DNA of 64,000 nt from an uncultured cyanobacterium (GTDB lineage: Bacteria; Cyanobacteriota; Cyanobacteriia; Cyanobacteriales; Nostocaceae): contig OY970166.1 of assembly GCA_963706595.1 (NCBI GenBank), positions 4,256,001 through 4,320,000 on the forward strand. Direction: 5' to 3'. A model generated the notes under the pieces. That model searched no databases and was not told where the DNA came from. It saw only the letters and a program-made list of their open reading frames with translations. How positions within the stretch are numbered: the first letter of the stretch is position 1; each line of letters begins with the position of its first letter. Both the position numbers and the translations under genes were made by a program. Positions 27,719 through 49,652 of this stretch are shown here, piece after piece.

Positions 27719-28978
27719 ATGAAAGAGTTGACGATATTCATTAATCAGTCTTTGCTGAGTTGGCTGGCTATTCAAATGTGTTTAGCGCTGGTGTTTCTGT
27801 TATACCTGCGATCGCACCAAGAAAACATCTTAGCCGATGAGCAGTTACCCAAAACGGCTGTAATTCTTTGTCTGCGGGGAGCCGATCCGTATTTACCTAA
27901 CTGCGTCGAGGCGCTGTTAAATCAGAATTATCCAGAGTACGATTTAAAGCTGATTGTTGATAGTCAAGAAGATCCGGCTTGGCAAATTGTCAATGATATT
28001 ATCAACGAACAAGGAGCCATCAACGTCCAAGTCAGCCCTCTGAGGACTATACGACATGACTGTAGTCTCAAATGTAGTTCGCTGTTGCAAGCTGTTTCCG
28101 AGTTGGATGATTCCTATCAGGCGATCGCCTTAGTAGATGGTGATACTATTGTTCATACTAATTGGTTACGTGAATTAGTTAGTCCTCTCGCTGATCCCAA
28201 AGTCGGCGCAACCACGGGGAACCGTTGGTTTGTACCTACAGGTAACTATTGGGGGTCTTTGGTCCGCTACATCGGTAATGTCTCTACTGTGGTGCAAATG
28301 TACCTGTTCCAAGTTCCTTGGGGTGGAACTTTGGCGATTAAAACAGATGTGCTGCGCCAAACAGGTCTGTTAGATAAGTGGAGACAGGCTTTCGGCGAAG
28401 ATTTTATGATCCACAAAATCCTCAAAAAACATGGGATGCGGGTTAAGCTTGTACCTTCCTTGATTATGCTCAATCGGGAAGAGTGTGATTTACTGGGATT
28501 AATAGACGCACTCAAGCGTCTCATCTTGTATTCTCGACTTTATCATCCCAGTTGGTTAGCGATAGTTGGTGATGCAGTTTCGAGTATTCTGTTTCCTTTT
28601 GTGGCCATAATTCTGTTTCTATTATCGTTGTTAGATGCACAGTGGGATTTAGCCGTTTTATTGTTTTCCACTTATTGCATTTACACTGTGGGACTACTCT
28701 TAGTAACGCTGATTTTAGAGTTAGGGGTAAGCCAAGTGATTTACTCTCATGGTCAGCCCACTTCAAAATTATCAATGGCGACAATAGCCAAAATATTCAT
28801 TGCTATTCCCCTCACGCAATGGGTATATGGATTAGCTTTGCTCTCGTCATTATGGATGTCAACAGTTAAATGGCGCGGTATTGTTTACCGTGTGCAAAAT
28901 GCCTGGAATATCCGATTAGTTGAATACCATCCTTATGATTTGTTGGATCAACCTATTGACAGCAAAATTTCTCTTTGA
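27719..28978 (+). CDS. Glycosyltransferase family 2 (ceramide glucosyltransferase-like), membrane-bound
   Basis: VILCLRGADP, CSLKCS, LVDGD, PWGG, GED motifs; C-terminal TM helices. Confidence 0.85.
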   Translation: MKELTIFINQSLLSWLAIQMCLALVFLLYLRSHQENILADEQLPKTAVILCLRGADPYLPNCVEALLNQNYPEYDLKLIVDSQEDPAWQIVNDIINEQGAINVQVSPLRTIRHDCSLKCSSLLQAVSELDDSYQAIALVDGDTIVHTNWLRELVSPLADPKVGATTGNRWFVPTGNYWGSLVRYIGNVSTVVQMYLFQVPWGGTLAIKTDVLRQTGLLDKWRQAFGEDFMIHKILKKHGMRVKLVPSLIMLNREECDLLGLIDALKRLILYSRLYHPSWLAIVGDAVSSILFPFVAIILFLLSLLDAQWDLAVLLFSTYCIYTVGLLLVTLILELGVSQVIYSHGQPTSKLSMATIAKIFIAIPLTQWVYGLALLSSLWMSTVKWRGIVYRVQNAWNIRLVEYHPYDLLDQPIDSKISL

Positions 28979-29081
28979 GGTAAATCAATGAGACGCGATG
29001 GAGACGGGATGAAGACGCGATGAATCACGTCTGTACAAGAAAGTTCATCTTTCAGAGTCAACCATACAGCAGTAATTAAAG

Positions 29082-30344
29082 ATGAACGACTTGGTAATAT
29101 TCATATCTAGGTGTCTAACCGTTAGCTTGGCTGTTCAAGTATGTTTTATGTTAGTGTTTTTGTGGCATCTATCCTCATCCCCAAAAAATCTCTTAGCAGA
29201 TGAAGATTTACCCAAAACGGCAGTGATTCTTTGCCTACGTGGCGCTGATCCGTTTTTGAGTGATTGTTTGCGGGCGCTGTTGAATCAGAATTACACGCAG
29301 TATGATTTAAAAATAGTCGTTGATCGGATGGAAGATCCAGCATGGACAATTGCTACGGATACTGTCCAGGAACATGGCGCGACTAATGTGCAAATCAGCC
29401 CGTTGCGAATTATCCGGAGAAATTGCAGTCTCAAATGTAGTGCTTTAATCCAAGCGGTGACAGAATTGGATGATTCTTATCAAGCGATCGCCTTAGTAGA
29501 TGCTGATACAATTGTTCATGAGCATTGGCTGCGTGAATTAGTCACTCCTTTAGCTCATCCCCATATTGGCGCGACAACGGGGAACCGTTGGTATGTCCCT
29601 ACAGGTAGCCATTGGGGTTCTATAGTTCGGTATATGTGGAACGTATCTGCGGTGGTGCAGATGTATTTATATGGTATTCCTTGGGGCGGGAGTATGGCGG
29701 TAAAAACAGCAGTCATTCATCAAACAAAATTGCTGGATAAGTGGGGAAAAGCCTTCTGTGAAGATACAATGATGCGTCATATTTTAGGTAAACATAAAAT
29801 ACAGATTAAATTTGTACCTTCTTTGATGATGCTGAATCAAGAAGAGTGTGATTTAACTGATTTAAAAACTTGGATGCAGCGCCAACTTTTGTTTTGCAGA
29901 CTTTATCACCCCCACTGGTTTGCAGTAGTAGGTAACGCGATTTTAACAATCCTGTGTCCTACTCTTTTGAGTGTATTGTTTGTAGCAGCTTTGCTAACTG
30001 GACAATGGTATGCTGCATCATTATCTCTGAGCTACTATAGCAGCTATGTAGTGGCATTACTATTGATTGTACTTTTCTTAGAACAAGCAGTACAGCTAGT
30101 TATTCGCGCTGATCATCAACCAAGTGCAAAATTATCCGTTGCGGCAATTTTCAAGATGTTAATGGGAATTCCCTTAACACAATGGGTTTATGGGTTCGTA
30201 TTCCTCTCTTCTCTCTGGATGTCAAAAGTTAAATGGCGTGGGATCACCTATAAATTCAAAAGTCCCTGGAAGATTCGGTTAGTTGAATATCGTCCTTATC
30301 GGTCGGGAGACAAACCTGTTTTGCCAAATATTTCTTTGAATTGA
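29082..30344 (+). CDS. Glycosyltransferase family 2, tandem paralog of the preceding gene
   Basis: Same motifs (VILCLRGADP, LVDAD, PWGG, CED). Confidence 0.85.
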   Translation: MNDLVIFISRCLTVSLAVQVCFMLVFLWHLSSSPKNLLADEDLPKTAVILCLRGADPFLSDCLRALLNQNYTQYDLKIVVDRMEDPAWTIATDTVQEHGATNVQISPLRIIRRNCSLKCSALIQAVTELDDSYQAIALVDADTIVHEHWLRELVTPLAHPHIGATTGNRWYVPTGSHWGSIVRYMWNVSAVVQMYLYGIPWGGSMAVKTAVIHQTKLLDKWGKAFCEDTMMRHILGKHKIQIKFVPSLMMLNQEECDLTDLKTWMQRQLLFCRLYHPHWFAVVGNAILTILCPTLLSVLFVAALLTGQWYAASLSLSYYSSYVVALLLIVLFLEQAVQLVIRADHQPSAKLSVAAIFKMLMGIPLTQWVYGFVFLSSLWMSKVKWRGITYKFKSPWKIRLVEYRPYRSGDKPVLPNISLN

Positions 30345-30415
30345 TCATGCAATGCGCTCGAAAAGCATAAAGAGACCTTTTTTTCGGTTCTAAAATACAC
30401 AAAAGCACTAAAATT

Positions 30416-31678
30416 ATGAACAAGCAACCGCTTCGTATTGCTCTGTTTACAGGATTGTATGCTCCTTTTTTAACAGGGGTTTCAATTGCAGTCCATCAAA
30501 GGGTGCGCTGGTTACTCGAACAAGGGCATGAAGTTTTTCTAATCCATCCAGAAATTAACGATCAGTATCCTAAAAATGTTAGCAATCGTCCTATGGCAGG
30601 ACTGGAAGAATTGCAGTGTTTTCCTAATTTTTCTGCTTATGCTTTCCCCACAAAGCCACTAATTTTTTACAAGTCTTTACCCCAACCATTACACTATCGC
30701 CATTGGAGTGATACTAAGTTATTAGAAAAGTTTAAACCCAATATTGTAGTAGTAGAAGAAGCTCCGCAAATGCGAGGTTTCTATTCAATGTTCTTGCAAG
30801 GTTATGGTCGCCCCATTGGGGTTGAATATGCGAAGAAAACGGGGACTCCAATTATTTCTGTTTTCCACACTGATATTGTTGCCTACATTCAATACTACTT
30901 GGGTAATCAGATTTTCAATTTGATGCGTCCGATTATTCCCTTTTTAGTCAAGCAGTCCACTGAAGTCTATGATCGCAATTTATTTCCTTCTCAAGGACAA
31001 CTCCTAAAGTACAAAGAACTGAATTGCCAACGGGGTGAATATGTTCCTTATCAAGGAATTGATTGTGAAAAATTTCACCCCCGCAATATTATCCACAACC
31101 CGATTCCCGACGACAACAGACCAACTATCTTGTTTGTGGGACGCATTACGGCGGAAAAAAATGTCACCCAACTTATCGATATGTTTCCGCTAATTGCTGC
31201 CAAAATTCCTGATGTTCATTTGGTGATTATTGGTAGTGGTCCTTTAGATGAAGAACTGCGTCGGCGCTCCCAAAAGTTTGAAGGTATTACTATGTGGGGT
31301 GAGTCCCACGGTACAGAACTTTTGGGTTGGTTTGCTCGTGCAGATGTATTTGTCAACCCTTCTGCGACTGAAAATTTCTGCACTACAAATACCGAAGCGC
31401 TGGCTTCCGGTACTCCTTTGGTGGCTGTGGTTGCACCTTCAAGCTTTGAGCAAGTTTTTCCTGGTCGCAATGGCTTTTTAGCTGAAGCCAATAATCCTCA
31501 AGATTTTGCCGATCAGGTAGCGGCAATTTTGGCAAATTCTCAACTTAAAGCAGAAATGGCTGAACAGGCTCGTCCTTCTATACTCAAATATGATTGGTCG
31601 GCGTGTTCACAAAAGTTTGAAGATAAGCTTTATGAGATAGTTCAAGATGTTAAGAAACTAGAGCCAACAACTGTTTAA
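30416..31678 (+). CDS. hglT: Glycosyltransferase family 4, HglT
   Basis: FVGRITAEKN and ENFCTTNTEALASGTP GT-B motifs; last gene of the hgl island. Confidence 0.82.
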   Translation: MNKQPLRIALFTGLYAPFLTGVSIAVHQRVRWLLEQGHEVFLIHPEINDQYPKNVSNRPMAGLEELQCFPNFSAYAFPTKPLIFYKSLPQPLHYRHWSDTKLLEKFKPNIVVVEEAPQMRGFYSMFLQGYGRPIGVEYAKKTGTPIISVFHTDIVAYIQYYLGNQIFNLMRPIIPFLVKQSTEVYDRNLFPSQGQLLKYKELNCQRGEYVPYQGIDCEKFHPRNIIHNPIPDDNRPTILFVGRITAEKNVTQLIDMFPLIAAKIPDVHLVIIGSGPLDEELRRRSQKFEGITMWGESHGTELLGWFARADVFVNPSATENFCTTNTEALASGTPLVAVVAPSSFEQVFPGRNGFLAEANNPQDFADQVAAILANSQLKAEMAEQARPSILKYDWSACSQKFEDKLYEIVQDVKKLEPTTV

Positions 31679-33853: not shown

Positions 33854-34658
33854 TTAGGATACCTTAGCGGCTAACTCCAATGGATTAAAATAAGGAACTC
33901 GCTCTACAGAAGTTTCCCACATCCCATTGGGGTATAGCTTCAACAACCGAAATCCAGGGTATTTGGAATCAATCATCAAAGTGGGACTTTTGGAGCGAAA
34001 CTGAAGCCCAGTTGACGGAGTGCTGAGGTAGTGAACTTGGTGACGCTGGCGTTGAAATTCTTGATGGATGTGACCAAACAAAACTAACCTGACTTGGGGA
34101 TGACGGTCGAGAACAGCAAAAAATTCTTGGGGATTTTTCAGAGGTACTGCTATCTAACCACGCCGAATTTACCGGAAAAGGCGGATGATGTAGAGCGACT
34201 AAAGTCGGAGCATCACCCAGGGTTTTTAATTCAGAGTCCAGCCAATCGAGAGTTTTACCGGAAAGATGACCATGTAAACAACCAGGAACCGAAGAATCGA
34301 GTAAGATAAAATTCCAACCACCACGATGAAAAGACTTGCGTCGGGAAACCATCCCCATATTTAAGATATCTTCCATTGCGATCGCACAGTCATGATTCCC
34401 TGGTATCCAGTAAGCAGGTATTTGTAGTTGATTCACTAGATTTTGCAGATTATCATAGGAATCAGGCTTACCATCACCAGACAAATCACCCGTTAGCAGT
34501 AGTAAATCAACTTCACTCCTGATCTGTTTTAACCTGTCTACAACTGCCTGGAAAGACTGTATAGTAGGCATTCCCAGCATTTCGTGATTTTCCGCAGCAA
34601 ACAGATGTGTATCTGTGATTTGAGCGATTGAGATCGGAGATACTTGATTGATTTTCAT
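33854..34658 (-). CDS. cpdA: 3',5'-cyclic-nucleotide phosphodiesterase (Icc/CpdA), +1 frameshift near 34142
   Basis: DTH, TGDLS, PGNHD, HHPP, and GHIH in the second ORF (33854-34081). Confidence 0.82.
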
Positions 34659-35120
34659 GGATGGCGATATGTGCAACTTAACATCTGATTCTTTTGGGGG
34701 AAAGTAGCTGACCAAAGTCAAACAATTTTAGATTTTAGATTTTAGATTTTAGATTTGGGATTGACTCCCCAGATAAATCTAGGGGCTTTTACCATGAATG
34801 AACTATTGGTGATAGTGATTTTGATGTCATCATAGAGCTAAAAACCATAAATAAACATCTAATTTCTGGAAATCCCTGAATTTTCATCTATCTTAAGAGT
34901 GAAATTGTATTTTTTTTTGTGTTTTACGTCACGCATTTTTGGCAAAAATTCATCAATCCCTCACACTATCCCCACAAATCTTCATTTAGCGCTGCCATCT
35001 CCTGGGATGTGCAAATGCCATTAACCACTAAATTTGCTCAGGTGCGGCAAAATTTTCAAGAGACGTAGGGTGTAAATTTAGAGAAAATATGTTATGCTAA
35101 GGAATCGTGAGAGCGATCGC

Positions 35121-35205
<85 letters not shown>

Positions 35206-35433
35206 GATTCTAGTTCCATAGATTCTCTAGAAACCAACAATCCAGGACTCAATACAGGACTCAAGAAGAATCCCCAAGCTGTTATTTGCTGCATGGGGAT
35301 TCTTTATTTGTCCAGTTCATCCGACTTGGCACATCTGATTTGATTATTTAATAATCCAGGTTTCCTGACTGTCTTCCGTTGGTAGCAGTATCTATTCCAT
35401 TCAGGCTGTTACCTGCTGTATGGGGGTTCTTTT

Positions 35434-35594
35434 TGAGTCCCTTGAGTCCTTTTTTGAGTCCCTTGAGTCCCACTGAGTCCCTTGAGTCCCTTTTTGAAAT
35501 CCTTGAAAGCTTTATACAGCCTATGTTTCAGCTTGGAACTCAAAAGGGACTCAAAAAGGACTCAGGGACTCAGCCGGAAACCCAAAGGGACTCA
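35434..35594. repeat. Bipartite TGAGTCC/GGACTCA repeat array
   Basis: TGAGTCC at 35434, 35443, 35455, 35464, 35474, 35483; GGACTCA at 35547, 35558, 35566, 35588. Confidence 0.88.
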
Positions 35595-35637
35595 AGCAGC
35601 AGATAACAGCCCAGTATGCCCTAGTTTCCCTAAATGA

Positions 35638-36063
35638 CTAACTAACCATATAGATAGAAGTATTTTTATTCCTGTAGGTTTGTCCTGTAGTATTGTTGCC
35701 CCGGTGGTCTGGTAAACCATTTGGGGTCTTTTTGTTGTCCAGGCTCCCAGGGAAACCACTTGTAAAGCTGAGAATCGTATATAACATCAAGTTGGCTGTA
35801 AAAGCCCTAGCATCAAGGCTTTTTGTTACTGATGCGGCTGTTGTGGCTCTTGTAGATGCTTTGGTGTTTCCAGTAGCATAAATACACTTATAAACTCCAG
35901 GTGCGTCGTTCATCCCCTGGGGGTTTATTGGAAGACTTGACGACGTTAAGTTTATGGTGCTATCATCATTTTCAAGGGATTGAGCATTTGCGCGTATTAG
36001 CTCAGTACCAAGTAAAGATAAAAAAAAATACTTTAAATCAGAGGTAATATGAGCCTCTGACAT
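35638..36063 (-). CDS. Hypothetical protein (element cargo)
   Basis: 141-aa ATG ORF, no recognisable motif. Confidence 0.4.
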   Translation of the reverse strand: MSEAHITSDLKYFFLSLLGTELIRANAQSLENDDSTINLTSSSLPINPQGMNDAPGVYKCIYATGNTKASTRATTAASVTKSLDARAFTANLMLYTILSFTSGFPGSLDNKKTPNGLPDHRGNNTTGQTYRNKNTSIYMVS

Positions 36064-36250
36064 TTTCTCGTAAATATATTTGACTAATTTTAAAGCCTGT
36101 GATACATTCTAAATATGGAGAATCAGAGGAATGAGGAAATAGAAGCGACCCCAGTTGCAAGCCGGGGTCTTGTTGTTTCCTATTTTCTTTCCAAGCTGTA
36201 CTAGAGCTTGAAGTTTCTTCTATGCAAACTTTTAATACAAGGACAAGGAT

Positions 36251-36520
36251 ATGGGGAACAGACCCAAACCTAGCTTACTACAGAATATCAAACATTCTGT
36301 AGTTTTGGCAACCGCAGTTCCACTGGTTTTTTTGGGGGGTGGTGTAACACTTAGCGAGTGCGGCGGTTTTGTCCATATAAAGCTGTCGGATTCTGGCAAT
36401 GAGTTTTTAGTGGACAAGCGCAACTGCAAACTCCCCAGTGATTCAGAGGAATCAGAAAAATCCTTAAGCTCTAAGGATTCTCATATTAGCACAGAAAATG
36501 ACCAGCCGCAGGTTGATTAA
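36251..36520 (+). CDS. Small hypothetical membrane protein (element cargo)
   Basis: AAGGA just upstream of the ATG; one hydrophobic segment; terminator-like hairpin plus T run near 36568-36599. Confidence 0.55.
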   Translation: MGNRPKPSLLQNIKHSVVLATAVPLVFLGGGVTLSECGGFVHIKLSDSGNEFLVDKRNCKLPSDSEESEKSLSSKDSHISTENDQPQVD

Positions 36521-36682
36521 CTAGGATTAGCAGATCCTCCTACTGCTGATTTATGCCATACTTTGTCCCCTTAGTGCCTAATCGTGCTGAGGGTTTTTTA
36601 TCTACCTGACTATGCTAAAATAGACAAAGAAAAGCCCCGGCGCTAACCAGGGCTAAACAAGCTTTATTAAGAATCGTTACAC

Positions 36683-37660
36683 TTACAACTTACTCCAGGT
36701 AGCTCGATCATCATCCATCGGCTCCCTACCCACTCCTTGAGAATCATACCGCTTGGTAAACTCAGGGAGTTTTGATATGGGTAGGGTTTTCAGTTGCTCT
36801 CTTACCCACCTCTTAGCTTTTCTGATACTCTTCTCGGTAGTGGGGTCTCTTTCAGCAAGTACCCCAACCTCGCACCTAGTCGCCACCTCCTCAAAGAATA
36901 TCAACTCACGTACGATCACCGTCTCTTCAGTTGCCTGTACCGTCTCAGGCTCATGGGTGGCTATGGGTGGCTTAGGCTCTACAGGCACATCTGGCACGAT
37001 CACGGGTTCAGGTTCAGATATAGCCACGGGTTCAGGTTTAGGCTCTTGCCAGCCTAGATCCTCAAGGCTCTCTCTCAGATGATCTAACCTCCTATTAACA
37101 CTTGCCTCATCACGGCTCTTGCCAGCCTGTTCGGGGTAGTAGTCTAGTTTCCTATCTTGTCCATACCTGCTAATGGCTTCCCTCATGAGCGGGTGGCTAA
37201 GTTGCTTCAGAACAGTGAAAGGGCGACGCTCAAAATACTCAGCCTTGTTTTTGATCACGAAGTCCCACACATCCTCTGGAAAATCAGAAGGCACAACTTC
37301 ATACCATTGTTGGTTGCCGTTCTTTGTCTTCTGTCGGGTAACTACCAGCCGTGCGTTACGAGATACAAAATACCTCCGATCCAAGATCCTCTCAGTTTCA
37401 GCATCATCTAGCTTAGTTTCCTCATCAGGTGATAGCCTAACCCATCCTGACGCTTCACACACATTGGGTGCTACGTTTTCATCATAAGCCTTATCAGGCA
37501 AAAGGTCTGAGGTGCTACAGCCTAGCTGTTCTAACCCCAGTAACATTGCCTTAAGCGCCAACTCATTCTGAGTCAACCCTATACTTTTAGCAAATGTTTC
37601 CATCCTTGTTTTGATCTGTTCATCCAATCGGAATGTAACTTGTGGTTTCTTGCTTGGCAT
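36683..37660 (-). CDS. Protein with N-terminal ribbon-helix-helix-like domain, Pro/Glu linker and conserved C-terminal domain
   Basis: QVTFRLDEQIKTRMETFAKSIGLTQNELA RHH pattern; AAAGGA RBS; C-terminus duplicated at 40680-40910. Confidence 0.75.
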   Translation of the reverse strand: MPSKKPQVTFRLDEQIKTRMETFAKSIGLTQNELALKAMLLGLEQLGCSTSDLLPDKAYDENVAPNVCEASGWVRLSPDEETKLDDAETERILDRRYFVSRNARLVVTRQKTKNGNQQWYEVVPSDFPEDVWDFVIKNKAEYFERRPFTVLKQLSHPLMREAISRYGQDRKLDYYPEQAGKSRDEASVNRRLDHLRESLEDLGWQEPKPEPVAISEPEPVIVPDVPVEPKPPIATHEPETVQATEETVIVRELIFFEEVATRCEVGVLAERDPTTEKSIRKAKRWVREQLKTLPISKLPEFTKRYDSQGVGREPMDDDRATWSKL

Positions 37661-37682
37661 AATCTATCCTTTGTTTATGGTT

Positions 37683-37921
37683 GGGTGCTACACATCTACT
37701 TGTAGCACCCTCAAGTTATTGCTATACAGCTATCTTGGCATATCGTAGCACCCATGTGTGGAAAGCCCTGTTTTTTATTTCAAAGTTTTCCCCTGATTAT
37801 TTGGGCGATGCTGGCTAAACTTTGCCAGCCATTCCCCCGTTAAAGTAGTACCCAACCGTAGCACCCTCAAGTTATTGTAAAGCAAGTTGTTTAGCAACTG
37901 TAGCACCCAATCGTAGCACCC
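37683..37921. promoter_or_regulatory. GTAGCACCC operator/iteron-like array
   Basis: Copies at 37683 (inverted), 37702, 37745, 37845 (one mismatch), 37858, 37900, 37913; upstream of the RHH-like gene. Confidence 0.65.
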
Positions 37922-37945
37922 AATGTGTGTAAAGAGCCATATTCC

Positions 37946-38215
37946 CTAGCTGAAGTTTAGCCCGGTTAGTTGCTTCTTACTCACAGTCCCATCAGGCTTG
38001 ACCATATCCCCAGTCGGGTAACTAATCCCTGAAGATTCCATCCCGCCCCTAATCGCACCTAGCAACCGCCGTTCCTGGATCAATAACCTGATACCATCCC
38101 TGATCAATCCCGATGCCGTGTTATCAGTCTTAGCCGCCTCAGCCTCTAACCACTGCCAAGTCGCCTTACTCAGCCGTACTGCCAACTGTTTACTATCTAC
38201 TCGCTTCCGTCCCAT
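37946..38215 (-). CDS. Small CopG/Arc-like ribbon-helix-helix protein
   Basis: KQLAVRLSKATWQWLEAEAAKTDNTASGLIRDGI pattern; start 38215 or 38239. Confidence 0.65.
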   Translation of the reverse strand: MGRKRVDSKQLAVRLSKATWQWLEAEAAKTDNTASGLIRDGIRLLIQERRLLGAIRGGMESSGISYPTGDMVKPDGTVSKKQLTGLNFS

Positions 38216-38864
38216 TACCTGCATACCAATGGTGTACATCTAGAGATAGTCAAGTTGGGTATTAGTGGGTTGCAAAATCCTAGTTTTGACAAGTTGAAAC
38301 CCTTACAGGCTAAAGCTTTGAGTGGTCTACAAGAATATGGCTACTAGATAGATGCTAGACTGGCTACTAAACAGGCTACTAGGATTTTATTGGCAATCAT
38401 CGCTTAAGCATCTCTAAGTTATTTCTCCCCATAGTGCGCTTAAACATCTCTAGGATTTTTTGCTGCATATCATCACTTAAGCGCCCTAAGTACCCACAAT
38501 TCCCTATACACTTAGTCCACTGAGATTATTTAAATAAACACATACTCAGCCAGAATCGACCAAACTTTATTGGGTGTTTTCCTAGCTTTCATTCCCTTTG
38601 GTTTCAGTTAGTAGCCTTTGCCCCTGGTTAATCCTGATTACTCAAGATTGCTCAGTTACCACCATGCTGTTAGTTGCTGTATAGGTGTCTTGGGTGGCTA
38701 ATGGGTGGCTGTCTCCCTCCTCATCTTTTGTAATCTATGTGTCCCAACAATGTTTTTATACAGGTTTAGTATCCGGGGGAACCTAGCCATAAAATAAGCC
38801 CCTCCAGAATCGCCTAGAAGGGCATCAAAATCATTTGGCTATACGATTGATTGCAAGTCAGTTT

Positions 38865-39095
38865 TTAGTCGTTAGGGGCAACCTTACCTAAATACTCTGC
38901 ATCCAAGGAATCCTCAGAGATTCTGTAGTACCCCTCGTGAATCTCACCATCATGATCGCAGTTATAGTACCCCATAATGTCCATTATTCTGGATTCATCC
39001 CATGCTCTAGGGCATTTGTCACTCAACCCATTACCTCGTTTATACTGTACACAATCTACTTCTGACCAGTGAACGATAATAGTTCTCTTTCCCAT
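38865..39095 (-). CDS. Hypothetical protein downstream of the integrase
   Basis: 76 aa; AGGAG RBS; 18 bp after the integrase stop. Confidence 0.6.
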   Translation of the reverse strand: MGKRTIIVHWSEVDCVQYKRGNGLSDKCPRAWDESRIMDIMGYYNCDHDGEIHEGYYRISEDSLDAEYLGKVAPND

Positions 39096-39113
39096 TGTTA
39101 TTTCTCCTGAGTG

Positions 39114-40376
39114 CTACAACTCAGGCATTTCTATGGGTGTGACATTACCCGCATAATGCTTGAGAATGATCGCCGGACTATTCCCCACAAGTTTAGCCAC
39201 TTCTGAGACGGTAAAACCTGCACCAAGCATCATAGTAATGAATGTATGCCGAGTATTGTACAGGCATCTATAACGCTCTACCGCCCCTGAGTCTACCAAG
39301 GCACGCATAACCCCAGTATAAAACTTAGTTCCCTGTTTTCCCCCGTGCCATACTTGCTGTGAGAACTTTGTATTGTTAACCATCCCACCGTTGGGACTGG
39401 TAAATACAGAATCATCAGGCAACTGATCGGGTTTCCTTAACTCTTTCAGAAGTTCTTTAAGCCTGTTATTACAAGTAAACCTACGACTTTTACCTGTTTT
39501 GGTACATTTCCTAACCTTTGTTGCCCCATCGTAACTATCACTAAAAGTTATAACTGAGTAATCCGGTGCGATATGCTTCCACTGTAGAGCTATTGCCTCA
39601 CCAGTCCTACAACCAGTCCAGAATAGAAACTTGATAAATGGTGCATAATGTGGCTTATTGGCTTCAAATGCCCCGATGATCGCATCCATCTCAGACTTAC
39701 TAAATGGATCAATGGCATCATCGTCTGATTTAGGTAACTTGATATCTGCGGACATCTGCATAAATGGATTGTCCTTAACCAGTCCAGACTTTACAGCCCA
39801 ACCAACACAGGCGCTTAGATAAGTTAAAACTCTCTTAGCTGCATTCGTGGTCAAGTTAGCTAACAGATAATCCCTGATCGCCACTGAATCATCTAGGCTG
39901 TGAGTAGGCAGTGACTTGATATGGTTTCTGTACTTCCTAGCATAATCCTTTCTGTAAGTTGTCTCTGCCAGTTGTGGCTTCATATATTCTGAATATCTAT
40001 CCCATAGTGTTAGCAGGTTGAATCTAGGCTCTACAGGCTTTCTAGGCTCTACTACGACTAGATGCCTATTCTTATAACTTGCTAACTTGTCCTTATATTT
40101 GGCTAGGGTCGGATTTAGCTGTTCTGTGAGTATATCCTCCTCAATCCAGTTAGCCACGCCTGATACACGCTTCTTGTTAATCTCAGTAGTATCTAAACCT
40201 GAGTAAATATAAACCTGCTTACCACCTGCTACTGACCTGGGAAGCCTTAACCTCAGCTTGCCTTCTTTATCATCAATGTTCACTGACATCTTGGCTTTTT
40301 TCTGTGCGACCATATCTCCCTGAGTCCTCTTAACCTTTACCTTACCAAGGGTAATCAATCCAGGACTCAAAGTCAA
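39114..40376 (-). CDS. Tyrosine recombinase/integrase with putative arm-binding N-terminal domain
   Basis: TGCRTGEAIALQW (catalytic R), KTGK, YNTRHTF, VGNS..KHY (catalytic Y); next to att. Start may be ATG 40313. Confidence 0.93.
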   Translation of the reverse strand: MTLSPGLITLGKVKVKRTQGDMVAQKKAKMSVNIDDKEGKLRLRLPRSVAGGKQVYIYSGLDTTEINKKRVSGVANWIEEDILTEQLNPTLAKYKDKLASYKNRHLVVVEPRKPVEPRFNLLTLWDRYSEYMKPQLAETTYRKDYARKYRNHIKSLPTHSLDDSVAIRDYLLANLTTNAAKRVLTYLSACVGWAVKSGLVKDNPFMQMSADIKLPKSDDDAIDPFSKSEMDAIIGAFEANKPHYAPFIKFLFWTGCRTGEAIALQWKHIAPDYSVITFSDSYDGATKVRKCTKTGKSRRFTCNNRLKELLKELRKPDQLPDDSVFTSPNGGMVNNTKFSQQVWHGGKQGTKFYTGVMRALVDSGAVERYRCLYNTRHTFITMMLGAGFTVSEVAKLVGNSPAIILKHYAGNVTPIEMPEL

Positions 40377-40440
40377 TAGGACTCAGCAATATTTCTAGGC
40401 TAGACAAGGCATCTGGCTAGTAAAAACGGTAGGCTGTCGC

Positions 40441-40496
40441 TCTGCAAAACCTCCATCCCCCGGTTCAAATCCGGGTGTCGCCTTCAGGGTTTCAGC
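40441..40496 (+). repeat. att direct repeat, right copy (3' half of tRNA-Cys)
   Basis: TCTGCAAAACC...GTCGCCTTCAGGGTTTCAGC identical to 35150-35205. Confidence 0.95.
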
Positions 40497-40915
40497 CCTT
40501 TAAGGACATCCAAAAGTTAATAAAGCCGCTATTTGATAGTCAAACTGATAGTCAAAAGGATTTCCCAGGCTGTTACTTGCTGCCTGATGGTTGTCTTTCC
40601 TGCCTGACTATGCTAAAATAGACAAAGAAAAGCCCCGGCGCTAACCAGGGCTAAAATGTTATTCTTGATTTCTTAACTATTACTTAATAATCCAGGTAGC
40701 TCGATCACTATCCATCGGCTCCCTACCAACTCCCTGAGAATCGTACCGCTTGGTAAACTCAGGGAGTTCTTCTATGGGTAGGGTTTTCAGTTGCTTCCTT
40801 AGCCACTTCTTTATTCTCTTAACGCCATCGGGTGTAGTGGGGTTTCTCTCAGCAAGTAGCCCAGCCTCGCACCTAGTCGCCACCTCCTCAAAGAATATCA
40901 ACTCAGGTACGATAA
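40497..40915. mobile_element. Remnant of a second related element
   Basis: 40603-40655 is identical to 36605-36657; truncated paralog of the 325-aa gene; att-proximal layout matches element 1. Confidence 0.78.
40680..40910 (-). pseudogene. 5'-truncated paralog of 36683-37660
   Basis: Shares IFFEEVATRCE and LPEFTKRYDSQGVGREPMD; no RHH region. Confidence 0.75.
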
Positions 40916-41015
40916 TGTCTAGACTCCAAGGGCTGTAGGGTATGCATTAGAGCCTTTTGGCTAGAAATTGATGCTTGAGTTGATATGCTGGATTCGTTAG
41001 ACACATAAAAAAATA

Positions 41016-41144
41016 TTTACCAATATGGTAAAGTATGCTTTTTTGAGGTTATATCAAATTTATTTACCAAAACGGTAAAGTATTACATTAATTGATATGA
41101 TATTTTCTCTAGAATATAACAAATTTATTTACCAAAATGGTAAA
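41016..41144. promoter_or_regulatory. Three 17-bp palindromic operators TTTACC-N5-GGTAAA
   Basis: Copies at 41016-41032, 41063-41079 and 41128-41144, directly upstream of the TA operon. Confidence 0.8.
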
Positions 41145-41165
41145 CTTGTATTAGTCTACTAACGC

Positions 41166-41495
41166 ATGGAAACTTCTTTCGCTGACGACAAACTGCAAAA
41201 CCTATGCGAGCAACCAAAACTAGCACAAAGAAAATTAGGTGCAAACTGTGCTAAGAAATTGGCAGCCCGATTGGCTGACCTTGATGCTCTTAATTGTGTC
41301 ACAGAATTATTTGCAGGTCGTCCCCATCCCTTAAAAGGAGATCGGGCAGGTGAGTTTGCAGTAGACCTAGAAGGTGGTAAACGACTTGTGTTTAAACCAG
41401 ATAACAACCCCATCCCTTTAAATGAGGATGGAAGCATTGATTGGTCTAAGGTTACTGCTGTTTGTATTGTTTTCATTGGAGATTACCATGACTAA
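41166..41495 (+). CDS. higB: HigB/RelE-family toxin (killer-protein type)
   Basis: HPLKGDRAGEFAVDLEGGKRLVF..IGDYH; toxin-first gene order. Confidence 0.85.
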   Translation: METSFADDKLQNLCEQPKLAQRKLGANCAKKLAARLADLDALNCVTELFAGRPHPLKGDRAGEFAVDLEGGKRLVFKPDNNPIPLNEDGSIDWSKVTAVCIVFIGDYHD

Positions 41496-42594
41496 GACAA
41501 CCCGTCCGTTTACTCCAGATTGGGTTTCTCCCCCTGGTGATACTATCGCTGATGTACTAGAAGAGCGTGATTGGACACAAATAGAATTAGCAGAGCGTTT
41601 AGGTTATAGCACAAAATTTATTAGCCAGTTAATTAACGGTAAAGCACCTATCAATGAAGAAACTGCTCTGAAACTAGAACGAGTTTTAGGGAGTACAGCC
41701 GCATTTTGGCTCAGACGTGAAGCTCAATATCGCGCTGCTTTAGCCAGGAAAGAAGAAGAAAGCTGTTTAAAGGGGTGGATATCTTGGTTAGATAAGTTAC
41801 CAGTCAGAGAATTGATGAACCAAGGTGCAATTCCCAAGTGCAATTTGATTGCTAAAAATAAGCCAGAAGTGGTAAAAAAGTTGTTACATTTTTTTGGTGT
41901 TGCTTCACCAGAAAAGTGGGAGAAATGCTACGGAAATTTGGAAGTTTCTTTTCGTCGCACCCGTGAAGACCAAAGTGATGTTGGTGCTATTTCTGCATGG
42001 TTGCGTTTGGGTGAAATAGAAGCAGAAAAATTAGACTGTCCTAAGTACAGTAAACCAAAATTTGAAAAAGCAGTGCGGGAAATTCGCACTTTGACGGTGT
42101 TACCACCAGAGGAATTTGAACCACGAATGCAACAATTATGCCGAGAATCTGGGGTGGTGTTGGTTTTAGTACCTGCAATTAAAGGAGCGCACGTTAGTGG
42201 TGTAGCGAGGTGGTTAAATCGCCATAAAGCACTAATTCAACTTTCACTTTACGGTAAAACCAATGATCGGTTCTGGTTTAATTTCTTCCATGAAGCAGCA
42301 CATATTCTATTACACAACCAGGAAAATATTTTTCTTGATGAATGGGATAGTGGGAAAAGTTGGGAATCTGAACTAGAACAGGAAGCTGATAAATGGTCGC
42401 GGGAATTTTTGATACCTTCTGAGTATCAAGGAGAATTAGCGCAACTTAAATCTAAAGCTGATGTTGTTGATTTTGCAGCGCGTATCAATATTCATCCTGC
42501 TATTGTTGCAGGGCGACTTCAACATGATAATTTAATTCCTCTCTCTTGGATGAATGGTTTCAAGGAGAGTTTTTGTTTTCAAGGGGTAGAATAA
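41488..42594 (+). CDS. higA: HigA-type XRE antitoxin fused to ImmA/IrrE-family metallopeptidase
   Basis: SPPGDTI..WTQIELAERLG HTH; FFHEAAH (HExxH); EQEADKWS; ATG 41488 overlaps the end of the toxin gene. Confidence 0.85.
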   Translation: MTKTTRPFTPDWVSPPGDTIADVLEERDWTQIELAERLGYSTKFISQLINGKAPINEETALKLERVLGSTAAFWLRREAQYRAALARKEEESCLKGWISWLDKLPVRELMNQGAIPKCNLIAKNKPEVVKKLLHFFGVASPEKWEKCYGNLEVSFRRTREDQSDVGAISAWLRLGEIEAEKLDCPKYSKPKFEKAVREIRTLTVLPPEEFEPRMQQLCRESGVVLVLVPAIKGAHVSGVARWLNRHKALIQLSLYGKTNDRFWFNFFHEAAHILLHNQENIFLDEWDSGKSWESELEQEADKWSREFLIPSEYQGELAQLKSKADVVDFAARINIHPAIVAGRLQHDNLIPLSWMNGFKESFCFQGVE

Positions 42595-45131: not shown

Positions 45132-45211
45132 GATAACCCCTAAATTAGAGAAAAATTTTAATTCTTTGTACCTAAATATCTCCAAAAAATAGTGTGTTTA
45201 GTGAGGTAAAA

Positions 45212-46502
45212 ATGACTCAAAATGTGTTGTTTAAAGTTCCCAATCACAGGTTAATTGTATTAGTAGTAGCTGCTACTGTGATTACAGGTGGAATTGCTTT
45301 TTATGGAATTGCTCAGTCTGGTTTAGTTGGTCAAACTGCTTCATCTGAACTTGGAGAAACTCCGCCAGTTACACCAAAAATCTCGGCTTTAGGAAGATTA
45401 GAACCAGAAACAGAGGTAATTAGTCTGTCTGCACCTTTGGATTTGGATGGCGATCGCATTGCTCAGATTTTAGTCCAAGAGGGCGATACAGTCAAATCTG
45501 GTCAGGTGGTGGCAATTTTAGACTCACGCACTCGCCTACAAACTGCTGTACTCCAAGCAGAACAACAGGTGAGAGTGGCTAAAGCTAAATTGGCTCAAGT
45601 TGAAGCTGGAGCAAAAACTGGAGAAATTCAGGCACAGCAAGCAACTATGGAACGCTTACAGGCTCAGTTACAAGGCGATAAAATAGCTCAACAAGAAGCG
45701 ATCGCTCGCATAGAAGCACAGTCTTTAGGTGAAAGATTAGCACAAGAGGCGACAATTAACAAGCTGCAAGCCGAATTAAATAATGCTCAAGCTGAATATG
45801 AACGTTATCAGCAACTATCCTCAGAAGGTGCAATTTCTCATTTCTTTATTTGATAGTAAGCGCTTGAGTTTAGACACTGCAAAACAGCAACTTTCACAAG
45901 CCCAAGCAGTTCTAAATCAAATTAATTCTACTGCTAGTCGAGAATTAGCTCAAGCTCAAGTTACACTGACTCGAATTAACGCCACTGGGAATAAACAAAT
46001 TAGTGAAGCCCAAGCCACACTCAACAGTATTGCTGAAATTCGTCCCGTAGATATCGCAGCAGCTAAGAGTGAAGTTGAGAGTGCGATCGCGACACTCAAA
46101 CAAATGCAAACTAATTTAGATTCTACTTCCATTATAGCACCAATAGCTGGACAAATTCTCAAAATTCACACACGAGTTGGAGAAAAAATTAGTGATGCTG
46201 GAATTGCAGACTTGGCGCAAACTGAACAAATGATTGCAGTTGCAGAAGTATATCAAACTGATATTAGTAAAATTAAGCTGGGACAGTCAGCAGTAATTAC
46301 TAGTCAAGTATTTGCTGGTGAATTGCGCGGCACAGTTTCTCAAATTGGTTTGCAGGTAAATAGACAAAATGTTTATAGCAACCAACCCGGAGAAAACTTA
46401 GATAGTCGCGTGATTGATGTCAAAATTCGTCTGCATCCTGAAGACAGTAAACAAGTCGCCAATTTGACTAATTTGCAAGTACAAACATCAATTGAATTGT
46501 AG
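45212..46502 (+). CDS. DevB-family membrane fusion protein, +1 frameshift near 45840
   Basis: ISALGRLEPE..AEVYQTDI..DSRVIDVKI split over two overlapping ORFs. Confidence 0.83.
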
Positions 46503-46544
46503 AAGGAATAACGAACCACACCAGACGCAGAGGACACAGAGTCA

Positions 46545-46709
46545 AGAGGATGTTTGAAAAGTATTGTTTATTACTCAAAAATTTTAGAAACCTAACCCCC
46601 CTACCCCCCTTCCCTAGAAGGGAATGGGGGTTTCAAAGCCTCTCTCCTTGTAGGAGAGAGGTTTGGAGAGAGGTTTTTAGTATACTTTACGACTTTACAA
46701 ACATCCTCT
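46545..46709. mobile_element. MITE with 18-bp terminal inverted repeats
   Basis: AGAGGATGTTTGAAAAGT (46545-46562) vs ACTTTACAAACATCCTCT (46692-46709), 17/18 match; no ORF. Confidence 0.72.
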
Positions 46710-46804
46710 AAGAGAGTTTGAGAGTTTTTTTGCGTAAGTCCTGTTAAAAATACCAGTATTATTCCACTCCCTACTCCCCACTCCCCACTCCCCACTCCCC
46801 AATT

Positions 46805-47972
46805 ATGTTCTTTAAACCATCACGGAAGACTCCCCTAGCATGGCGACAGTTAATGAAAGAAAAAACTCGTCTGTTAGTCGCAGTTGCAGGAATTACTTTT
46901 GCTGATATGCTAATGTTTATTCAGCTAGGTTTTGAAAGTGCGCTGTTTGATGCTGCTATTCAACCTCACCGCAATTTACAAGCAGATTTGGTGTTAATTA
47001 ATCCCCAATTTCAAACTCTGTTTTCAGTCAAAAGTTTTTCTAGAGAACGACTATATCAAACATTGGGTTATGAGGGTGTAAAATCAGTAAATTCTGTTTA
47101 TATTGGCACTGGACAATGGCGAAATCCTCAAACCCGTCTTGATCGGGCTATCTTGGTTTGGGGTATCGATCCGGCACAACCTGCTTTTAAGTTTCCCGAA
47201 GTTCAAGAAAATCAGAATCATCTCAAACAATTGCATCAAGTGCTGTTTGATCAAGCCGGTCGTCCAGAATATGGCGCTGTTGGTGATATATTCCAGAAAA
47301 CAGGCAATTTTGACACGGAACTGAATAATAAAGCTATTCGTGTCAGGGGTGTATTTAGTAATGGTGCTTCTTTTGCTGCTGATGGAAATGTGATTACCAG
47401 TGATTCTACGTTTTTACAACTGTTTCCCGAACGCCAAAGCAACCTTATAGAAGTGGGTTTAATTACTCTTAATCCTGGTGTAAATGCGGGAAAAGTGCGA
47501 TCGCAATCTAGCCGCAAAGTTACCCAATGATGTCAGCGTTTTAACTCCAGAAGAATTTGCTCAAATAGAAAAGAAATACTGGGCTGAGGGGACTGGGATT
47601 GGTTTTATTTTCGGTTTAGGTGTGGTGGTGGGGTTTATTGTCGGTATCGTGATTGTCTACCAAATTCTTTATTCTGATGTCTCCGAACATCTCCCAGAAT
47701 ACGCTACCCTCAAAGCGATGGGTTATAGCGATCGCTATCTGTTGGGAGTCTTATTACAAGAGGCTTTATTTTTAGCCGTCTTCGGTTATATCCCGGCATT
47801 TTTTCTTTCCTTCGGATTATATCAGCTTGCTTACGCTGCCACAATGCTACCCATAGCCATGAAGCTGGAAAGAGCCACAACTGTGTTTATTTTAACCGTA
47901 ATTATGTGTAGTTTTTCTGGTGCGATCGCCATGAGAAAGTTACGCACAGCCGATCCCGCAGATGTTTTCTAA
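46805..47972 (+). CDS. DevC-family ABC permease, +1 frameshift near 47507
   Basis: TPLAWRQL..EYATLKAMGY..ADPADVF split over two ORFs. Confidence 0.83.
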
Positions 47973-48006: not shown

Positions 48007-48759
48007 ATGATACAAAACAGTATATCAGGAAATGACCCCTTAAATTTATCTACTGTGGAACCTGTGATTTCTGTTCACAAAGTCAATCATTACTTTGGCA
48101 GTGGAAACCTGCGAAAACAAGTCTTATCTGAGATTAATTTGCAGATTAACGCCAGTGAAATTGTGATTATGACTGGTCCCTCCGGTTCAGGTAAAACCAC
48201 TCTGTTAACCCTCATGGGTGGTCTACGTTCCGCCCAGGAAGGTAGTTTGAAAATCTTAGGACAGGAAATTTGTGGAGCCAGCAAAGGACAATTAACGAAG
48301 CTGCGCCGTCAGATTGGTTATATTTTCCAAGCACATAATCTGATGACTTTTTTGACAGCTAAAGATAATGTCAGAATGTCCATAGAATTGCATGACGAGT
48401 TTTTCGCTGAGGATATCAACGCCAAAGCGATCGCCATGTTGGAAACTGTGGGTTTAGCAGACCATGTAAATTACTATCCAGAGAATCTCTCAGGGGGACA
48501 AAAACAAAGAGTTGCGATCGCGCGTGCGTTAGTCAGTCATCCTAAAATTGTTTTAGCAGATGAACCCACAGCCGCATTAGACAAAAAATCTGGGCGCGAT
48601 GTCGTGGAATTAATGCAAAAGTTAGCCAAAGAACAAGGTTGTACAATCTTGCTAGTTACCCATGATAACCGGATTCTTGATATCGCTGATCGAATTATTT
48701 ATATGGAAGATGGTCAGCTAAAGACTAATGCTGTAGATGTAGCCACAACAATGCATTAA
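48007..48759 (+). CDS. DevA-family ABC ATPase
   Basis: GPSGSGKT, LSGGQKQR, ADEPT, VTHD. Confidence 0.92.
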   Translation: MIQNSISGNDPLNLSTVEPVISVHKVNHYFGSGNLRKQVLSEINLQINASEIVIMTGPSGSGKTTLLTLMGGLRSAQEGSLKILGQEICGASKGQLTKLRRQIGYIFQAHNLMTFLTAKDNVRMSIELHDEFFAEDINAKAIAMLETVGLADHVNYYPENLSGGQKQRVAIARALVSHPKIVLADEPTAALDKKSGRDVVELMQKLAKEQGCTILLVTHDNRILDIADRIIYMEDGQLKTNAVDVATTMH

Positions 48760-49576
48760 ACTTCAGACATTTCTCCCCTCTCCTTAGTAAGGAGAGGGGT
48801 TGGGGGTGAGGTTCCATGATCACCGGATTCTTGATATTGCTGATTGAATTATTTATATGGAAGATGGTCAGCTAAAGACTAACGCTGTAGATGTAGCCAC
48901 AACAATGCATTAAACTTCAGACATTTCTCCCCTCTCCTTAGTAAGGAGAGGGGTTGGGGGTGAGGTTCCATGATCACCGGATTCTTGATATTGCTGATTG
49001 AATTATTTATATGGAAGATGGTCAGCTAAAGACTAACGCTGTAGATGTAGCCACAACAATGCATTAAACTTCAGACATTTCTCCCCTCTCCTTAGTAAGG
49101 AGAGGGGTTGGGGGTGAGGTTCCATGATCACCGAATTCTTGATATTGCTGATTGAATTATTTATATGGAAGATGGTCAGCTAAAGACTAATGGTGTAGAT
49201 GTAGCCACAACAATGCATTAAACTTCAGACATTTCTCCCCTCTCCTTAGTAAGGAGAGGGGTTGGGGGTGAGGTTCCATGATCACCGGATTCTTGATATT
49301 GCTGATTGAATTATTTATATGGAAGATGGTCAGCTAAAGACTAACGCTGTAGATGTAGCCACAACAATGCATTAAACTTCAGACATTTCTCCCCTCTCCT
49401 TAGTAAGGAGAGGGGTTGGGGGTGAGGTTCCATGATCACCGGATTCTTGATATTGCTGATCGAATTATTTATATGGAAGATGGTCAGCTAAAGACTAACG
49501 CTGTAGATGTAGCCACAACAATGCATTAAAGTTAAGACATTTCCCCCCTCTGGTTACTAAGAACAGGGGTTGGGGG
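48661..49576. repeat. 154-bp tandem repeat (5 full copies plus a degenerate sixth) of the devA-like 3' end and a REP-like hairpin
   Basis: Unit starts at 48661, 48815, 48969, 49123, 49277, 49431. Confidence 0.95.
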
Positions 49577-49652
49577 TTAAGACATTTCTCCCCTCTCCTT
49601 ACTAAGGAGAGGGGTTGGGGGTGAGGTTCTTTAATTTTAGAGGATATAATCT

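Follow-up and report, generated by a model that had tools for sequence, protein, structure and literature searches.

Structure of the tRNA-Cys locus

The window analysed here is a 64,000-nucleotide stretch of the genome of an uncultured cyanobacterium of the Nostocaceae (GenBank assembly GCA_963706595.1, contig OY970166.1, positions 4,256,001 to 4,320,000 of the forward strand); positions are those of the window unless stated otherwise, and the prefixes G and L are our handles for genomes and loci. It contains a tRNA-Cys gene followed by an element of 5,291 bp between two att copies (element 1), which encodes a tyrosine integrase. The subject of this report is a set of short repeats beside the att copies and their relation to the N-terminal domain of the integrase. 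Features of the locus are listed in Table 1. The att copies form an exact repeat of 56 bp, 44 bp of which are tRNA-derived core. Because the att copies of most relatives end at 44 bp, the remaining 12 bp are read as left-end sequence common to two sibling elements.

The sequence CAGGACTCAA is found at 35243 and 35255, and TGATAGTCAAA at 40534 and 40546. Both pairs start at +38 past the 56 bp repeat (a 37 bp gap), have a 12 bp period and are followed by a homologous segment; AGGACTCA recurs at the far end of element 1, inverted at 40321 and direct at 40362 and 40378. All of these coordinates, the offset, the period, the homologous segment and the far-end copies had been described in an earlier note made from the letters alone and were confirmed in the sequence. 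In the 5.57 Mb genome a GATAGTCA pair with a 12 bp period occurs once and a GGACTCA pair twice, both within element 1; an exact 8-mer pair at this period was present in 0.28% of random 40 bp genome windows. The two pairs are very probably arm-type sites of two sibling tyrosine integrases that use the same tRNA-Cys core, a reading drawn from comparison of related sequences. They are referred to below by arm type, AGGACTC for element 1 and GATAGTC for the right-hand pair.

The sequence to the right of 40496 includes a stub that is 85–94% identical to 36591–36916. No third att copy was found in the whole genome, and tblastn revealed no second sibling integrase in it; the three other matches were 30–38% identical, two of them lying at tRNA-Phe and tRNA-Thr. 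Of the two siblings in the window, one is an element with an intact-looking integrase; the older is represented by its left end only, with no integrase. A second working element was rejected on these grounds. The tandem siblings of the earlier note are thus retained in part: the second pair belongs to a real lineage, of which seven GATAGTC-type integrases were collected, and the second element is a remnant.

The integrase matches PF00589 with an E value of 2e-9. The catalytic-motif residues R236, K272, R355 and Y387 are invariant in 50 homologues, and the first histidine is replaced by Y352. In an AlphaFold model the N-terminal region forms strands E12-16, E19-24 and E34-41 and helix H44-62, with a predicted local distance difference test score (pLDDT) of 85–93, followed by core-binding and catalytic domains. 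The model was aligned with full-length lambda Int (PDB entry 1z1b) over 314 residues, covering lambda residues 13–356 (Z 18.1, root-mean-square deviation 13.6), and its fold also matches Tn1549 Int. The N-terminal domain folded alone without an alignment gave a pLDDT of 57 and no structural match above Z 4. A PDB sequence search returned matches to catalytic parts only, and PF12167 matched 40 of the 50 homologues at E ≤ 0.05. A scan of viral contigs yielded distant integrases only, at most 38% identical; the closest named relatives, in the named genome collection searched, were Nostoc records.

Table 1. Features of the tRNA-Cys locus in the window; arm assignments are putative.
Feature	Position	Strand	Remarks
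tRNA-Cys(GCA), target gene	35121..35192	+	Sole copy in genome
Left att copy	35150..35205	+	44 bp tRNA-derived core (anticodon arm to 3' end) and 12 bp from the left end of the element
tRNA-side arm pair of element 1, type AGGACTC	35243..35264	+	12 bp period; +125/+137 from tRNA start, as in relatives
Motif GCTGTTANNTGCTG after arms	35278..35291	+	Five of nine genome copies lie within 35278-40569
Array of 10 further GGACTCA copies	35434..35594		Six inverted, then four direct
325-aa open reading frame	36683..37660	-	No family match; 3' end repeated (85–94%) in right-hand remnant
97-aa open reading frame	37946..38239	-	Resembles ribbon-helix-helix proteins by eye; three sibling elements have homologues
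Tyrosine integrase, 399 aa (PF00589)	39114..40313	-	Starts near right att, points to tRNA
Integrase codons 10-41, predicted three-stranded β-sheet of arm-binding domain	40191..40286	-	Holds residues 16, 26, 34, 35 and 37
Inverted arm copy	40321..40328	-	8 bp upstream of integrase start codon, beside likely ribosome-binding site
Two direct arm copies, integrase side, type AGGACTC	40361..40385	+	
Right att copy	40441..40496	+	attR of element 1, read as former attL of older sibling
Integrase-less sibling remnant	40497..40916		Left end, arm pair, 3' stub of 325-aa gene
Older sibling's arm pair, type GATAGTC	40534..40556	+	Spacer nearly identical to left end in G004

Sibling integrases and arm types

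Siblings were collected from 351 genomes of the family, 127 genomes of one genus (the two sets overlap) and the named genome collection; a class-wide search at E ≤ 1e-95 gave no match in 400 other genomes, 17 of them from the family. The collection contains 29 distinct close-sibling integrases (57–100% identity), all at tRNA-Cys, with five arm types: AGGACTC (two), GATAGTC (seven), GATATTC (nine), GATAGCC (six) and GGTAGCT (five). The layout is constant: one inverted copy beside the start of the integrase gene is followed by two or three direct copies and then by the core, and a direct pair lies about 50 bp beyond the end of the tRNA. The same motif was present at both ends in 23 of the 26 elements with both ends in hand, the contigs of the other three siblings lacking the tRNA-side end. 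In L088 other DNA replaces the right att copy. In the five GGTAGCT-type siblings it is the 5' part of the tRNA-Cys gene that is duplicated, not the 3' part; these loci (L092, L093, L095–L097) lie upstream of an intact tRNA-Cys gene, with the orientation of the integrase unchanged. Mixed or degenerate arm copies were seen at L094, L241 and L270.

Full elements are mostly 7–11 kb long and encode a VapE-like helicase (present in the four full siblings scanned) and ribbon-helix-helix (RHH)-like proteins. Among the element open reading frames (ORFs) scanned there was no match to a capsid, conjugation or excisionase family. Family scans of element 1 gave no match for ORFs other than the integrase and no replication module (primase or helicase); lacking the helicase, it is probably reduced. 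The minimal element, in G010, is 2.6 kb long, keeps all arm copies and has no ORF of ≥ 65 aa besides the integrase.

The same arm types recur at integrases of tRNA-Thr, -Phe, -Leu, -Lys and -Ser genes, which share no core. One such integrase, 37% identical, lies at tRNA-Thr in the genome of the window itself (L044, C1 about 3269600–3271100) beside about seven CATAGTCAAA-like repeats. These have ATAGTCA in common with the orphan pair at 40534, so the arm code appears to serve a second tRNA core within one cell.

Co-variation of the putative arms and the N-terminal domain

The nearest neighbour by the first 32 residues gave the correct arm type for 29 of the 29 siblings, and that by the rest of the protein (core-binding and catalytic) for 21. 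The earlier note had proposed a test for co-variation of N-terminal domain and att+38 repeat, and its reading of the repeats as element-specific arm sites is strongly supported by this evidence together with the matched ends within elements. Pairs with unlike arms that are 92–96% identical in the core-binding and catalytic part are only 62–66% identical in the sheet; amino-acid changes affect 11–12 of the 32 sheet residues, against 0–9 of 60 elsewhere. Across the 50 integrases arm type changes 20 times on the catalytic tree and ten times on the N-domain tree, the latter built from few columns. A single clade for the GATAGCC type was rejected by the approximately unbiased (AU) test on the catalytic alignment (p = 2.4e-5). 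Five GATATTC/GATAGCC pairs, not independent of one another, differ synonymously at 0.38–0.65 of same-residue codons in the sheet and mostly at 0.1–0.3 elsewhere.

We infer that a short cassette of sheet and arms has been swapped between siblings. Such an exchange is plausible because the excised circle would place the arms of both sides and the core next to the sheet codons, in one stretch of a few hundred bases that could be swapped as a unit. Near-identical catalytic domains would in this way acquire new addresses.

Residue-to-base correspondence

Integrase residues 16, 26, 34, 35 and 37 co-vary with arm bases. Residues were numbered on the window protein and bases on the 10-mer TGATAGTCAA, and rules were scored on the 50 integrases with callable arms, those of distant rows being called partly by eye. 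The table of 50 leaves aside loci with no callable arm (L103, L107, L109–L112, L114–L116, L124, L125, L130, L140, L024 and L025) as well as TGGGGTAAA and other distant types; two duplicate loci were counted once. Phenylalanine or tyrosine at residue 16 goes with A3 (31/31) and lysine or histidine with G3 (17/17); arginine at residue 34 goes with C7 (28/28) and any other residue with T7 (22/22); arginine at residue 26 goes with C8 (44/44) and threonine or alanine with T8 (6/6). The same pairings are found in integrases that are 37–50% identical, at other tRNAs and with the opposite gene layout. We infer from them that residues 16, 34 and 26 read bases 3, 7 and 8. The N-terminal sheet would then read the 10-mer in the major groove, as is the case for the integrases of lambda and Tn916, and each of the three residues would set its base.

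The rules were fixed beforehand and 40 unseen homologues were then fetched, of which 18 have this kind of sheet and were in scope. All 12 fully predicted calls matched at bases 3–9, and two more matched at the predicted positions. The caller used for scoring was written after the output of a first caller had been seen, and it also returned extra minus-strand pairs; the stricter first caller found ten of the 12 matches.

The repeats might instead be operators of a repressor or excisionase of the element, such as an RHH protein, and track the integrase N-terminus by physical linkage only. One copy does lie beside the start of the integrase, several RHH-like proteins are encoded by the elements, the window has the 10-copy array, and in a study of HE-PICIs (PMC10111431) a doubled attP motif is left unassigned between the arm domain and AlpA. 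We consider operators unlikely, since the residue-to-base pairings persist in the distant integrases described above, the minimal G010 element keeps every arm copy with no other ORF that could encode such a protein at ≥ 65 aa, and the spacing to the core is fixed.

Several observations weigh against arm sites read by a residue code and exchanged as a cassette. Two further rules are weaker: Y37 goes with G4 in four of five cases (L125, outside the table, would contradict it too) and Y35 with G6 in 37 of 41, the window type being among the exceptions. For the three strong rules every independent contrast on a supported branch agrees, but there are only a few of them (5/5, p = 0.06; 3/3; 2/2), and cassette swaps carry residue and base together. 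Held-out pair calls were also few (14), eight of the 12 matches come from one tRNA-Phe lineage, and the held-out locus L270 looks discordant by eye. L093 and L096 have no tRNA-side pair, and the G006 element joins a GTAGCC-type left pair to a GATAGTC-type integrase, with a decayed right att. The N-terminal domain of the window integrase itself gave no PF12167 match. A single clade for the GATATTC type was not rejected by the AU test on the catalytic alignment (p = 0.07), and GATAGCC/GATAGTC pairs have no synonymous excess in the sheet. The arms adjoin the sheet codons, so linkage alone would yield some co-variation. Finally, siblings whose arms differ at one base may cross-react.

Stacking at tRNA-Cys

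The sequence after tRNA-Cys was compared in 11 genus members, several of them without an integrase: five carry the AGGACTC type (two of these as a single copy), two AGTAGCC, one each GATAGTC and GATAGCC, and two have unrelated ends. In G004 a TGATAGTCAAA-type pair directly follows tRNA-Cys and the island has no integrase. The earlier note had named such a pair in a strain without an element as contrary to its reading, and G004 fits that description in part; it is also what would be seen if the second pair of the window belonged permanently to the host sequence behind tRNA-Cys or had arisen by chance. Yet a GATAGTC-type pair is present in only two of the 11 members, the others having three other types or unrelated ends, and full elements with a matching integrase begin with this pair at an identical offset. 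A host feature or chance repeat is therefore extremely improbable. Because the pair type varies in this way the G004 pair is taken as a scar, and pairs after tRNA-Cys in general are best read as scars of elements.

The genus yielded no clean empty site. A hairpin after the attR of some relatives, considered as the terminator of an empty site, was found to be the end of a distant element type with TGGGGTAAA repeats. In L033, L036, L037 and L041 the 3' half of tRNA-Cys has a variant T-arm (GGCGG...CCGCC) and changes in the variable loop. Such variant 3' halves were probably left by past integrations; a compensatory variant of four bases has been described for Anabaena variabilis.

A sibling left end lies behind four of the 23 attR sites examined. 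All four are of another type than the element in front, three of them down to one copy. Among the matches listed for the 351 family and 127 genus genomes there was one close match per genome, and no genome with two intact close siblings; more distant integrases do stack next to close siblings. Unlike siblings are probably orthogonal, at least in part: each integrase would act mainly on the ends of its own element, and a newcomer inserted before an unlike resident would see the junction as a plain attR and not as an attP of its own type. An orthogonal integrase set at this site, as the earlier note supposed, was not borne out, as there is neither a second sibling integrase here nor a searched genome with two intact close siblings.

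The arms may have diverged under selection against cross-excision, or against repression by a resident sibling, in the manner of phage immunity groups. This is possible, if somewhat doubtful. All four neighbours behind attR are unlike, as are the two types combined in G006; most of the change lies in the sheet, the catalytic part still being 92–96% identical; and in genus relatives AGGACTC has changed to AGTAGCC in both copies with the spacer nearly unchanged. The left ends at L037 and L039, after tRNA-Cys, are near-identical to that of the window in the spacer and have AGTAGCC in both arm copies; a close-sibling integrase of this type was not found in the collection. Same-type SXT/R391 tandems are unstable (PMC5812530). 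Against selection, four unlike neighbours out of four are expected by random pairing with P of about 0.29 from the type frequencies and are not significant; two intact close siblings in one genome were never seen in the search, simple recombination would also remove same-type tandems, and the arm types recur at other tRNAs with no shared core.

Neutral diversity is a serious possibility: arm and sheet would drift together by compensatory change and recombination would reassort them, siblings would cross-react in part, and orthogonality would bring no benefit. The recurrence of types at unrelated tRNA targets, the several types that lie one base apart and the mixed or degenerate copies are as expected from drift. 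Each switch, however, is a coordinated change of at least five DNA copies and the protein, and the amino-acid change is concentrated in the sheet.

Our tentative proposal, plausible on the sequences compared, is that a swappable address cassette and a code of nearly one residue to one base give a mutually orthogonal panel of integrases on one attB, which would be kept diverse by competition of siblings for the single tRNA-Cys gene and could be reprogrammed through three to five residues. Orthogonal siblings would explain how several elements come to lie on one essential tRNA gene, and would allow independent stacking and removal of cargo at one site in heterocyst-forming cyanobacteria. Changes in arm-domain specificity are hard to study in the known integrases, which are too divergent. 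The family described here provides near-isogenic natural pairs whose cognate repeats are known and which are 96% identical outside the 32 residues of the sheet; a DNA-recognition code of a β-sheet could therefore be tested by single swaps.

Further repeats and neighbouring genes

The 10-copy GGACTCA array, which the earlier note does not mention, is the densest cluster of this motif in the genome and is missing from a 92%-identical sibling in G010, the element of which has no array. Remnants in G007 and G004 have smaller arrays of their own arm type. The array could be an integrase sink or a slippage product. Inverted GCTGTTANNTGCTG motifs lie on its flanks. Copies of GCTGTTANNTGCTG in the island (35278, 35405, 35597–35610, 38666 and 40569) often sit where homology to relatives switches, and the motif might bind a protein or mark a hot spot of deletion. 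The inverted arm copy touches the integrase ATG in GATAGTC-type siblings; autoregulation of the integrase through this copy (40313–40328 in the window) is possible.

A HigB-like toxin gene and a partner with helix-turn-helix and peptidase M78 domains lie at 41166–42594, preceded by three 28-nt repeats (41009–41148) that are operator-like in look. A reading of this higBA-like pair as cargo of a second element is not supported: in G003 and G004 the homologous genes are found a few kilobases away from the tRNA-Cys island and not within it. A tandem array with a 154 bp period and a 25-nt palindrome inside follows an ABC-transporter operon (48660–49629). Three consecutive ORFs of 419–420 aa, possibly paralogues, occupy 27719–31678 on the + strand. 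A metallophosphoesterase gene (33969–34721) and two transporter ORFs (45194–47972) are apparently split or frameshifted, which may reflect assembly errors. In keeping with a cyanobacterial host, the genome has a cpcT-family gene and many GCGATCGC octamers, which we take to be HIP1.

Comparison with known systems

Integration at one attB with private ends has precedents, and these limit the surprise. Phage 21 and e14 at the icd attB (Wang et al., 1997) reportedly share a target, each integrase preferring its own ends with a contribution from arm sites, and the same own-end preference on a shared target is said to hold for the HPI and HAI7 integrases at tRNA-Asn (Szwagierczak et al., 2009). Those are isolated pairs of fairly distant integrases, whereas here catalytic parts up to 96% identical go with unlike arms, and the changes trace to single residues. 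The reverse pattern, with arms shared and cores different, is reported for lambda/HK022 and P2/W-phi. Tandem accretion at one att site reportedly occurs in the cis-mobilizable elements (CIMEs) related to ICESt1. The full siblings, with their size of 7–11 kb, integrase, VapE-like helicase and RHH-like regulators, resemble elements of the phage-inducible chromosomal island (PICI) kind and tycheposons; unlike PICI-like satellites, the window element has no helicase and no helper is known.

In SXT/R391 arrays (PMC5812530) each newcomer inserts at the regenerated site and older residents are reduced to remnants without an integrase, as here; the tandem partners in those arrays are under the same or cross-reacting integrases and the arrays are unstable, whereas the neighbours at tRNA-Cys have unlike arms. 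The nearest case is a 37-kb element in the tRNA-Cys gene of Anabaena variabilis (Pratte and Thiel, bioRxiv 10.64898/2025.12.09.693284), which excises as a circle detected by polymerase chain reaction and has a proposed crossover in the anticodon loop. It is like the window element in target gene, stacking and tyrosine integrase, and differs in its larger size and 368-aa integrase (compared by description). The words 'arm', 'repeat' and 'attP' do not occur in the main text of that preprint, the supplements of which may bear on attachment sites. A full-text literature search of incomplete coverage found no paper on the arm repeats of this family or on an arm-binding code.

According to Smyshlyaev et al. 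(PMC8138268), arm sites are bound by N-terminal three-strand domains, which also direct the choice between integration and excision. The heterobivalent integrases of lambda type, such as lambda Int, Tn916 Int and the IntBPP-1 subgroup with PF12167, have the same N-terminal domain of three strands and one helix, with core-binding and catalytic domains, as modelled here. They likewise have repeats flanking the core at a set distance, with one repeat inverted. Unlike those cases, the tRNA-Cys family combines close siblings on one core with at least five arm sequences, a short putative residue-to-base code and signs of cassette exchange.

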